Shown piece after piece: positions 12,193 to 14,622 of a stretch of DNA of 40,856 nucleotides. The position numbers and the translations under genes were made by a program. Origin of the DNA: an archaeon (GTDB lineage: Archaea; B1Sed10-29; WALL01). The stretch lies in contig JBHOSQ010000009.1 of NCBI GenBank assembly GCA_042584585.1, positions 1 through 40,856 of the forward strand. The letters are read 5' to 3'. The notes beneath the pieces were generated by a model. That model saw only the letters and a program-made list of their open reading frames with translations. It searched no databases and was not told where the DNA came from. Positions within the stretch are counted from its first letter, which is position 1. Each line of letters starts with the position of its first letter.

Positions 12193-14622
12193 ATGCGAGG
12201 TAGATTTCTGTTATTTGTCTTGCTGATTCTCGGCATCGCCGCAGCGGCATGCACACCCTTCACCGGAACGGGCGCCACGGGCACAGAGCCGGGCTGCTTC
12301 ACCAAAGACTTTTCAGGCGCAGGCACGCTCCAAGTGTGGAGCGAAGAAGGCGCTTCCATCGACGTCTCGTGTTTGGGCGAATCAGGCAGCAGCGTGACCG
12401 GCGTGTTCGGCGGCGGCTCGTGCACTTTTTCTGTTGACAGCGACAAATTTTACGGCATCAACACTTTTTTCGCTCCGGCGTCACTGGCGTTGAACGGCGC
12501 AACTTGTTCGCCGGGCGACGAGCAATGCATCAACAACGTTCGTTGGGTTTGCTTTGGCTCGTCACAAGGCACAATGCTCCTCCAGGACGGCTCATGCAAG
12601 GGCACGGAAATGCAGTGCGCCCCATCGGGCGGGTTGCGGTGCTTCCACGATGACACTTACAAGTGCGTGGGCGTTCCGCTTTCGTGGGACTTTTTCGGAA
12701 GCGGGTGCGCCGGCAGATCAAGCGGCGACGAAATCTCAACAACCCAGTGGACGAACTGGCAGCACAGCATTTCAAAGGCAGACCAGTACATACAGGAAAA
12801 CGAGGAAACCGAGGAAGAATTCAGTGAGCAGGTCGAGCCCTGGACCAAATACGTATGGGATACTCCCGGATTGTTTTCCGGCGAAGCCGAGCAGGGTGGC
12901 ATGTGCAGTGCGACTTATTACAATTATGAAGAGCTCCAGTGCAAAGCGGATTTTGCGGAGCGCGTTGACGTCCAGGTGTCGGGCGGCTTTGGTTTCTCCT
13001 TTAATTCAGGCATTGCGTCTGGCTGGAGTGGCTGTAACACAGATTCACTCAATGTCTTGAAGGAGTACGTCGAGACGTACGAGGGAGACAGCGACACGTT
13101 CGATAACGCCATGGGTGACGAAGAGGAATTGCTTTTCCAGTCGTTGTCCGGTGCGATGAACCCGAAGGGAGACTGTGACAAGCTCGAGGAAGGGATTAAC
13201 GACAAGCGCACGACCCAGCGGATGGAAGGGTACCGCGAGGCGGGCAGCAGCCATACATCTTATTCCGTGAACGTTTTCGAGGACGGAAAGATGGCGCAGG
13301 TATCCTATTTGGAGTCCCTGGGCCCGACCTCAGCTGATTATACTGCTTTGGAGAACTGCAGAGAATGCCAGAGGAAGTTCGACCAGGTGTCCCAGGAATT
13401 CTTTTATTTGGCGAATCCCGAGGAAAGAGAGCTGGAATGGGTTGACAACATCGGGCTTGGTTTGGTTGGTGTCGAGCTTGTTTCCGGCGCGGCTTGTGCT
13501 GGGACTTGGTGGGCATTAGGGGGCGCTTGTTGGGTCACTGGTGCCGCAGGGGTTCTAGAGTTCGCAGCCGACATGTATTCTGGCGGTAAACGGGTGGAGT
13601 CCGCGGTGGGGGATGGAGACTGGAGCCGGCTTGGCTTCAACTTGGTGTTCCTGGGCGTCTCGGCGGCCCCAGTTCTAACAGGCGGGGGCGCCAGAAAGAT
13701 AACGAAAGGGATTTTCGGGATTCTGGATGACGTGCCTCTGTTGGCAAGGAAGCTTGACGTGACGGAAGACGCAATAACTGCGCTGTATCGGGGATTTGAC
13801 GCTTCAGACACGCGGAAGTTCACCACGCTTGTCAAGGGCAGTGGCCCTGAGGCGGGCGAGGCAGTCATCGAGGCAGTCATAAAGTCGGGGGTCAAGTTGG
13901 ATGACGCGATTTACGCGTTCAAGCACGGCCCAGAGGGTCTAGACCTTCTGACGCGTGCTCAGAAAACTGGCGCAATTGATGATGTTATGCGCTTGTTAAC
14001 AAACGCTGATACTACGACTGTAAAGAAAGTCCTTTCTATGAGTGAAGACGGAGTCGCTTCGGTTCCCGACCTGGCCCGTGTTTTCAACAAGTATGATGAC
14101 GTTGGCTTGGAGGCGCTTAAGCAAACTGATGTTATACTGAAGCTAGGTGATGATGGCGCCGCCGTATTCAAGGGATCTAAGCAATCAGGCGGCGAGGTGC
14201 TGTCTGCGGTTTCAGAAGGCTTGTCGATGGATAAGCTGAAGGCGGCTAAGGGGGCAGACCTGGTCGATGTCGAAAAGGTACTGGACCGAGCAGCCGGCGG
14301 CGGCAAAATATTTGACTATACTGCCCGTGTAGGTGGGGAAATAAAACCAGTGAGTGTAAAAAGGATAGTGACTGAAACCTTAGACGACCGGAAAGCAACG
14401 AGCAAAATCTCAAATGCGCTGTCAGACATGGGCTCCGCCAGTAAGAATCTGCCGGGCGGCAAAACATATTCCGAGAAGTCAATCTTGCACGTCCTTGTAA
14501 GAAACAGTGGAGACAAGCAAGTAGTAGAAGGGGCGTTTAAGACATTAGTACAACAGAGCCCAGACTTGGCTAAGAAGTTCGAGTTGGTCGCGGATGTGGT
14601 GCCATCATCTTTATTGCATTAA
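12193..14622 (+). CDS. Putative secreted polymorphic toxin with C-terminal PD-(D/E)xK-variant nuclease
   Basis: Signal peptide, Cys-rich N-terminus, Gly/Ala-rich hydrophobic segment (13438-13700), helical linker, then E(14194)...KIFD(14314)...SVK(14353-14361). Confidence 0.6.
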   Translation: MRGRFLLFVLLILGIAAAACTPFTGTGATGTEPGCFTKDFSGAGTLQVWSEEGASIDVSCLGESGSSVTGVFGGGSCTFSVDSDKFYGINTFFAPASLALNGATCSPGDEQCINNVRWVCFGSSQGTMLLQDGSCKGTEMQCAPSGGLRCFHDDTYKCVGVPLSWDFFGSGCAGRSSGDEISTTQWTNWQHSISKADQYIQENEETEEEFSEQVEPWTKYVWDTPGLFSGEAEQGGMCSATYYNYEELQCKADFAERVDVQVSGGFGFSFNSGIASGWSGCNTDSLNVLKEYVETYEGDSDTFDNAMGDEEELLFQSLSGAMNPKGDCDKLEEGINDKRTTQRMEGYREAGSSHTSYSVNVFEDGKMAQVSYLESLGPTSADYTALENCRECQRKFDQVSQEFFYLANPEERELEWVDNIGLGLVGVELVSGAACAGTWWALGGACWVTGAAGVLEFAADMYSGGKRVESAVGDGDWSRLGFNLVFLGVSAAPVLTGGGARKITKGIFGILDDVPLLARKLDVTEDAITALYRGFDASDTRKFTTLVKGSGPEAGEAVIEAVIKSGVKLDDAIYAFKHGPEGLDLLTRAQKTGAIDDVMRLLTNADTTTVKKVLSMSEDGVASVPDLARVFNKYDDVGLEALKQTDVILKLGDDGAAVFKGSKQSGGEVLSAVSEGLSMDKLKAAKGADLVDVEKVLDRAAGGGKIFDYTARVGGEIKPVSVKRIVTETLDDRKATSKISNALSDMGSASKNLPGGKTYSEKSILHVLVRNSGDKQVVEGAFKTLVQQSPDLAKKFELVADVVPSSLLH

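Follow-up and report, generated by a model that had tools for sequence, protein, structure and literature searches.

What does the gene at 12193-14622 encode in a 40,856-nucleotide (nt) stretch of archaeal DNA, and against whom might its product act? The stretch, which we call the window, belongs as contig C9 to a genome of 1.02 Mb and 84% completeness (G000), and its archaeal character is apparent from a thermosome, three class III signal peptide proteins, Thi4 and archaeal-type housekeeping genes. An initial annotation had described a toxin architecture at 13438-14622, with hydrophobic helices, a nuclease tip and an export signal on the same protein; this interval is the back half of one plus-strand open reading frame (ORF; 12148/12193-14622, stop codon 14620-14622) that begins either at GTG 12148 or at ATG 12193, the latter as in the database gene call P0002 (809 amino acids, aa). 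We read the gene, with a probability of about 0.72, as encoding the protein that bears the toxin in an archaeal polymorphic toxin system, a nuclease that would cut DNA or RNA in a neighbouring cell. Zhang et al. in 2012 reportedly described the anatomy of polymorphic toxins as a conserved carrier, a swappable tail, a variable partner and orphan cassettes, and we favour this reading because these features, together with a compositional break, are found in the family of loci described below.

Judged from sequence comparison, the last 178 aa of the protein are an exchangeable module. When 1.84 billion representative proteins were searched exhaustively with HMMER (threshold E <= 0.001), nine were returned, the query and its own paralogue included; three of the remaining seven share only the front and middle of P0002, and four share only the tail. 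The homology of P0003 extends over residues 6-619 (43% identity), beyond which its end differs; that of P0005 and P0006 is confined to approximately residues 6-190, and P0007-P0010 align with residues 631-808 only (E between 1.4e-13 and 1.1e-7). Two further tail carriers with fronts unrelated to that of P0002 came from a profile search, P0011 (1686 aa) and P0012 (741 aa, labelled by its source as a hypothetical protein of Candidatus Woesearchaeota archaeon), bringing the relatives to three front/middle-only and six tail-only proteins; a conserved front and middle (the scaffold) is thus found with unrelated C-terminal domains, as expected of polymorphic toxins. P0011 and P0012 also have a further conserved region in common upstream of their hydrophobic helices, and P0011 contains 95 Cys and a MopE-type metal-binding motif. 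Other searches were less productive: a word-index homologue search with the back half of the protein recovered the protein itself only, a related-locus search with a three-row tail alignment recovered one metagenome contig (L010), and a search of genome contigs returned nothing with the tail and two loci, from no new genome, with the scaffold.

The same exchange can be followed between close relatives. A paralogue on contig C5 of the same genome shares the first ~208 aa of P0002 (80% identity over residues 6-208) and is unrelated afterwards. Among 31 genomes of the phylum, the scaffold is present in two, the window's genome and G024 (same family, other genus), and the tail profile finds the window-type tail in one, the window's own. 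G024 has at least three scaffold loci, each with a further tail, and the scaffold-sharing proteins fall into five tail types by our own grouping from alignments, three of which display by eye the classic D...ExK or D...QxK pattern. Weak matches below curated cut-offs link one orphan tail to NERD (E 0.0029) and another tail to DUF6883 (E 0.0012). An orphan cassette is found on contig C14 of G024, where a 203-nt repeat of the linker (79% identity) precedes a tail and a small ORF that are both new; the window itself contains none. The G+C content falls from 0.54-0.57 along the scaffold to 0.493 in the tail and 0.456, the minimum of the locus, in the next gene (14632-15249). That the toxin would act on another cell, as the initial annotation suggested, is supported by the swappable tails, the variable small genes behind them, the orphan cassette and the break in composition at the tail.

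Two of the related loci have features of their own. The C5 paralogue (G000:C5 7723-9663, minus strand, locus L003; 646 aa) and P0006 end in a short, different tail that has two conserved His four residues apart and no Pfam match; a 184-aa ORF and then an anchored Cys protein follow the C5 paralogue, and its neighbours include a PKD/Ig giant surface protein, a pilin-like protein and a prepilin peptidase. Positions 2-2805 of L032 (G024:C98) hold the 3' part of a scaffold gene with the DUF6883-like tail, a 174-aa ORF with weak beta-propeller-type matches, a 315-aa anchored Cys protein and the start of the next scaffold gene.

Structural modelling leads us to predict that the tail is a nuclease of PD-(D/E)xK fold, with E44/E63, D77 and S90-x-K92 as its motif residues (tail residues are counted from 14086). 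Using a six-row alignment, the best AlphaFold model of the tail (md3a3aee46132) reached a predicted local distance difference test score (pLDDT) of 87.5 and a predicted template modelling score (pTM) of 0.85, with the element order helix 38-55, strand 58-62, helix 63-70, strands 78-82 and 85-93, helix 101-119, strand 132-138, helix 141-157 and strand 165-171; a single-sequence model of residues 609-824 was poor (pLDDT 47.6). Comparison of the tail model with 48,161 chains in VIA-align gave 4 at Z >= 8 and 34 at Z >= 5, the top matches, proteins of restriction-endonuclease fold, lying at Z 9.2-7.4, and by title 11 of the 15 top rows are restriction endonucleases, CdiA-CT toxins, Hachiman HamA or a repair endonuclease. 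The CdiA-CT toxins among them are 4g6v (Z 8.3), 4g6u (EC869; Z 8.1, root-mean-square deviation 3.7, 124 residues aligned), 4zqu (Z 7.6) and 5j4a (Z 7.4). For the most part the weak Foldseek rows are likewise nucleases with this fold (MGME1, EcoO109I, HamA, LmuA, Hjc and two CdiA-CT toxins), and a protein-atlas feature search with the tail placed EC869-like and Tox-REase clusters at 0.87-0.90, values that serve as a lead only.

The residues expected of such an active site occupy the expected places in the predicted model, with an Asp at the start of strand 2, S/Q-x-Lys in strand 3 and a Glu on a preceding helix: D77 stands just before strand 2 (78-82), S90 and K92 lie within strand 3 (85-93), and the conserved E44 and E63 are on helices. 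D77 and K92, the Asp (14314) and Lys (14359) singled out by the initial annotation, are kept in all five sequences that cover them, from source DNA of 27% to 55% G+C, and position 90 is Ser in four of the five and Gln in P0012. All tip motifs that the annotation quoted occur within the last 178 aa (14086-14619); the Glu that it chose (E37, in GGEVLS) is not conserved, and E44 and E63 are conserved instead. Passages of PMC9086364 describe the EC869/TA271 and YPIII toxins as Zn-dependent DNases with Glu177, Asp198, Ser209 and Lys211, and the 1026b toxin, in which Asp replaces Ser, as cutting tRNA. D77...S90-x-K92 repeats the D...SxK pattern of EC869/TA271 with slightly longer spacing (13 versus 11 residues).

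How close, then, is the tail to EC869? The proposal of an EC869-like restriction-endonuclease fold is supported as regards the predicted fold, which the AlphaFold model of the tip and its VIA-align matches indicate to be PD-(D/E)xK, and as regards the D...SxK pattern; it did not stand as regards membership of the EC869 family by sequence. PF21111 (CDI_toxin_EC869_like) is without a match by hmmscan at E up to 0.1 for the whole protein and up to 10 for the tail alone, the 809-aa protein is without a Pfam or NCBIfam match anywhere along its length, and the tail is therefore not a sequence member of that family. Sequence searches of the PDB returned chance-level rows only (best E 0.69 with the protein and 0.74 with the tail profile), with no CdiA-CT among them.

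The remainder of the protein is laid out in Table 1. The export signal postulated earlier is a lipoprotein-type signal peptide, whose Ala-Ala-Ala-Cys end we take to be a lipobox; a Cys stands directly behind the hydrophobic stretch in 7 of 8 complete N-termini (P0002-P0006, the G024:C4 gene and the gene that starts at the end of L032), the exception being P0008. All 20 Cys of P0002 lie at residues 20-446 and none in the last 363 aa, and this division into a Cys-rich front and a Cys-free end is found in 10 of 10 family proteins examined; as far as sequence can indicate, such an end suits a tail that needs to stay reduced or to unfold. Five scaffold relatives have C389, C392, F396, Y405, P409, E411, D418, G444, R467, G475 and P493 as invariant residues. 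The Gly/Ala-rich hydrophobic helices that had been reported at 13438-13700 were located at 13450-13686 (residues ~420-498), where hydrophobicity is marginal, the two Kyte-Doolittle 19-residue peaks reaching 1.55 and 1.52 and the Gly-rich segment between staying under 1.5. A comparable stretch precedes the tail in P0008, P0009, P0011 and P0012. The linker described between helices and tip was also recovered; it is common to P0003.

Table 1. Features of the toxin-type locus and its flanks, in window coordinates.
Feature	Position	Strand	Evidence
Divergent type IV secretion-like cluster	5859-12036	-	Pfam matches, adjacency to toxin locus
Signal peptide, lipoprotein-type, ending Ala-Ala-Ala-Cys	12193-12252	+	Hydropathy peak 2.51, residues 5-23
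Cys-rich outer domain	12253-13356	+	18 of 20 Cys at residues 20-392; part common to P0003, P0005, P0006
CxxC / Y..NPEER motif, then two or three Gly/Ala-rich hydrophobic helices	13357-13776	+	Conservation, hydropathy
Cys-free linker ending at tail-exchange junction (~14050-14083)	13777-14085	+	P0003 homology ends at residue 619; tail-only homologues begin at 631-638
C-terminal toxin-type domain, 178 aa, predicted PD-(D/E)xK nuclease fold	14086-14622	+	AlphaFold model, fold matches, conservation, G+C
Tail residue E44	14215-14217		
Tail residue E63	14272-14274		
Tail residue D77	14314-14316		
Tail residue S90	14353-14355		
Tail residue K92	14359-14361		
Immunity candidate, 205 aa	14632-15249 (alternative GTG start 14623)	+	Position, spacing, no signal peptide or hydrophobic segment
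Membrane-anchored Cys-rich protein closing every locus of the scaffold family	15251-16084	+	One N-terminal anchor, 10 Cys

The gene that begins 9 nt past the toxin stop codon encodes a 205-aa protein with no Pfam or NCBIfam family match and no protein-atlas lead, which we regard, on grounds of its position, tight coupling, lack of an export signal and co-variation in composition, as a candidate immunity protein. Every related locus has a different small ORF, likewise without a signal peptide, directly behind its tail. Of the loci retrieved, L010 (27% G+C) alone shares the window's tail type; an ORF of 205 aa occupies the equivalent place there, and the two small proteins are colinear at 26% identity over 123 residues, a weak similarity with a BLASTP E of 0.003 for one comparison; the small ORFs behind other tail types have no similarity to the window's 205-aa protein (z -1.2 to 1.5). 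Complex prediction of the tail with the 205-aa protein scored 0.00 in two runs without controls, a value that carries no weight for or against binding. The L010 small protein (1099-1716) and its relatives (P0014-P0018) form a family of 161-219 aa without a Pfam domain, whose one member with context seen sits behind a window-type tail.

The locus is closed by a membrane-anchored Cys-rich protein whose gene begins 1 nt past the preceding stop codon, and full-length homologues (~280-315 aa) end a toxin and small-gene pair at G000:C5, G024:C4, G024:C14 and G024:C98. Its first ~120 aa (window 15251-15620), comprising the anchor and a small Cys domain, are present in 14 of the 31 phylum genomes (loci L015-L031), where they head open frames of 143 to 1313 aa; at full length the protein is found only in the two genomes that carry the toxin.

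Upstream and divergent from the toxin gene lies a cluster encoding a VirB4-type ATPase, a PrgI/VirB3-like protein, a polytopic and weakly pilin-like protein, a 541-aa surface protein, a VirB2/TrbC-like pilin and a 169-aa membrane protein (Pfam matches P-loop_TraG 2.3e-22, PrgI 2e-07, T4SS_pilin 1.1e-10 and TrbC 7.6e-08). The congener G026 is syntenic on both sides of 5859-16728, with a 2-hydroxyacid dehydrogenase (85.6% identical) on the left and matching RidA and cysteinyl-tRNA synthetase on the right, but has only 666 bp with one unrelated gene between them; because of this, we treat the toxin locus and the secretion-type cluster as one accessory block of 10.9 kb. VirB4 occurs in 2 of the 31 genomes, the same two that have the toxin scaffold, in one copy each and with a toxin locus adjacent in both, and the neighbours of the G024 block differ (arginyl-tRNA synthetase on one side, a CBS protein on the other). 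The paralogous toxin loci G000:C5, G024:C14 and G024:C98 are away from any VirB4 gene. On this genomic evidence a functional link between the VirB4 cluster and the toxin is suggestive. A search for attachment sites found no direct repeats of at least 10 nt between the two island edges.

Two further ideas about this block were set aside. Recent transfer of the island between genera is not indicated, as the VirB4 identity of 73% between the two genomes falls within the range of their housekeeping proteins (cysteinyl-tRNA synthetase 65%, thermosome 76%), and neither is the halophily hinted at by the earlier choice of Haloferax as an expression host, given a VirB4 isoelectric point of 9.6 and a moderate content of acidic residues. 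Elsewhere in the window, three consecutive genes at 26818-34671 encode proteins with class III (type IV pilin-like) signal peptides, one of them 1572 aa long with a weak glycosyl hydrolase 16 match, and a 704-aa protein at 36787-38901, with a transglutaminase-like core and a weak CARDB match, adjoins the thermosome gene.

If the gene does encode a polymorphic toxin, its parts suggest how it might work. The lipoprotein-type signal would direct Sec export and lipid anchoring, displaying the disulfide-rich front on the surface, and the CxxC and Gly/Ala-rich hydrophobic module would hold the protein in the membrane or move it through. The linker would present the tail, and the Cys-free linker and tail would be transferred into a neighbouring cell, a competitor or a host archaeon, whose DNA or RNA the nuclease would cut upon contact; the producer would be protected by the cytoplasmic 205-aa protein. 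In this scheme, translocation by the hydrophobic helices, immunity conferred by the product of 14632-15249 and toxicity itself are all inferred. Delivery is its weakest step: the VirB4-like apparatus may provide the route, the link between the two being correlative.

Several observations weigh against this reading, the first of which concern the fold. The prediction was built on six sequences, and two of five models were confident (pLDDT 87.5, 87.2, 58.8, 53.7 and 49.6); Foldseek comparison of the tail model with the PDB gave no match at E <= 0.001; and Z values of 7-9 are within the range that VIA-align calls common for models without a clear match. Since Z 7-8 is common in such cases, the argument for the fold therefore draws on the uniformity of the list of matches together with the motif, and on no single score. 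Alignment of the tail by hhalign with the classic-motif tails of its relatives was not significant (E 0.56 and 0.28), and Pfam and NCBIfam models of toxins, immunity proteins and pre-toxin regions match neither the protein nor its neighbours. The immunity assignment, for its part, is positional only. The score between the small proteins of the window and L010 was reached by 16 of 2000 shuffles (z 3.4), a profile made from five L010-protein relatives, with the window protein left out, failed to retrieve the latter among the genome's 5320 ORFs, and hhalign of the 205-aa protein against the L010 family gave E 0.13; as assessed by these comparisons, homology between the two is not established.

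The remaining objections concern topology and delivery. If all three hydrophobic segments span the membrane, the tail would face the cytoplasm of the producer, a poor fit to a contact toxin displayed on the surface. The co-occurrence of VirB4 and toxin comes from two related genomes, and with VirB4 identity in the housekeeping range shared descent could therefore explain it; neither a coupling ATPase nor a relaxase nor an integrase was seen in the island, where the VirB4-type protein is the only ATPase, and no known secretion-signal domain matches the toxin protein. A tail that faces the cytoplasm would nevertheless fit hand-over by the VirB4 apparatus better than plain surface display. We advance tentatively, as an idea of rather low probability, that the 10.9-kb island is a self-contained DPANN contact weapon, in which a VirB4/VirB2/VirB3-like apparatus would deliver the swappable-tail proteins into a neighbouring archaeon, the linker and tail being handed over from the membrane.

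The likeliest of the alternatives, though an improbable one, is that the gene encodes a nuclease anchored in the membrane for the processing of DNA that enters or leaves the cell, with the downstream protein as its inhibitor. Such pairs exist, NucA/Nin of Bacillus subtilis being a membrane nuclease and inhibitor in competence. The gene divergently adjoins the only VirB4 cluster of its genome, an arrangement repeated in G024, and the two share an island and a distribution of 2 in 31 genomes; a three-segment topology would moreover place the nuclease in the cytoplasm at the membrane, and no relaxase is encoded nearby. What makes this alternative improbable is that a housekeeping machine part would not swap its catalytic tail, and at least five unrelated tail types occur among the scaffold relatives; there is, in addition, an orphan cassette, the paralogous loci stand away from VirB4 genes, and the same tail appears on unrelated giant Cys-rich proteins of other lineages.

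The possibly cytoplasmic tail and the location of the locus within an accessory island would also suit a membrane-anchored defence or abortive-infection protein, in which an outer sensor is joined to a cytoplasmic nuclease that the downstream protein restrains and that is released on phage or plasmid attack, and Hachiman HamA, Lamassu LmuA, Can2, Card1 and Cap4 are among the fold matches. The fold scores of the CdiA-CT toxins equal or exceed those of the defence nucleases, however, and a conserved, disulfide-rich, lipid-anchored front with orphan tail cassettes marks polymorphic toxins and not known defence systems. With no defence-family match in Pfam or NCBIfam either (the PADLOC library was not searched), we consider a defence role quite improbable. 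Least credible, and in our view very improbable, is an endonuclease-like fold without enzyme activity, for example a binding or adhesion module of a variable surface protein for self/non-self recognition, for which the Ser or Gln in place of the usual acidic residue before Lys and the precedent of VARTIG, described in passages of PMC8416519 as variable surface-protein modules of archaea without toxins, can be cited, but which sits badly with the conservation of Asp and Lys in organisms of such different G+C content, with the catalytic Ser-x-Lys variant of the EC869/TA271 DNase (PMC9086364, in the passages on its active site) and with a tightly coupled cytoplasmic partner gene that is hard to explain without a harmful activity.

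Read as a polymorphic toxin, the locus can be set beside known systems. With the PD-(D/E)xK CdiA-CT toxins (EC869/TA271, 4G6U; Y. pseudotuberculosis, 4ZQU; B. pseudomallei 1026b, 4G6V; E479, 5J4A) it has in common an exchangeable C-terminal toxin domain of ~120-180 aa and restriction-endonuclease fold (predicted here), an acid...Asp...Ser-x-Lys motif on helix 1 and strands 2-3 (E177/D198/S209/K211 there), and a gene directly downstream, which is the immunity gene there and the 205-aa candidate here. The carriers differ: in place of a CdiA filament with a CdiB partner, the window's protein has an archaeal lipoprotein-type, Cys-rich front with hydrophobic helices, and its 809 aa are without Pfam repeat or haemagglutinin domains and without a VENN junction. 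Restriction-endonuclease-fold tails are common in polymorphic toxin systems more generally, and the locus resembles these, Tox-REase systems included, in its conserved trafficking part, variable C-terminal toxin, variable candidate immunity gene and orphan cassettes; the protein-atlas look-alikes of the tail include Tox-REase-2, -3 and -7 clusters (0.87-0.88, again a lead only). It differs from them in that no Pfam Tox-REase, PT-TG or other pre-toxin model matches P0002, and in a scaffold and closing anchored Cys-rich protein without a described family.

Polymorphic toxin systems are said to have been predicted in archaea by Makarova et al. in 2019 (mBio). Archaeal loci with PD-DExK or colicin-type tails are predicted from genomics in passages of PMC6393860, and a 2021 paper states that no archaeal polymorphic toxin had been experimentally characterised (PMC8416519); going by these passages, the kind of system is known. 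The DUF4157 Zn-protease signature associated with such systems is absent from the window locus. As far as library searches indicate, what is new are the carrier family, the tail family and the closing anchored protein, all without a library model, and the scaffold may figure in the 2019 archaeal survey.

The neighbouring apparatus invites comparison with bacteria. The X-Tfe of Xanthomonas are bacteria-killing type IV secretion effectors with immunity proteins, and the window similarly pairs a probable toxin with a candidate immunity gene beside a VirB-type apparatus; it differs in showing no coupling protein and no XVIPCD-type signal, and in the Sec-type signal of its protein. Attachment to other cells is the way of life of DPANN archaea. 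A VirB4-based injector of 'yet unknown effectors' has been proposed for them in passages of PMC10266531, where the nanohaloarchaeal VirB4 proteins are giant fusions, unlike the window cluster. A joint island of toxin locus and VirB4-type apparatus in a presumed DPANN archaeon appears to be new as well, the link being unmentioned in the literature passages on archaeal systems that we drew on.

The locus thus offers a compact candidate toxin/immunity pair, a carrier and tail that the libraries do not describe, and a physical and phyletic link to VirB4. Should that link be functional, it would point to a candidate cargo and offer a way to study how such small archaea combat or control the cells around them. 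If the island as a whole is indeed a contact weapon, it would hold the first candidate cargo for the suspected type IV secretion-like systems of DPANN archaea and would represent an archaeal counterpart of bacteria-killing type IV secretion.

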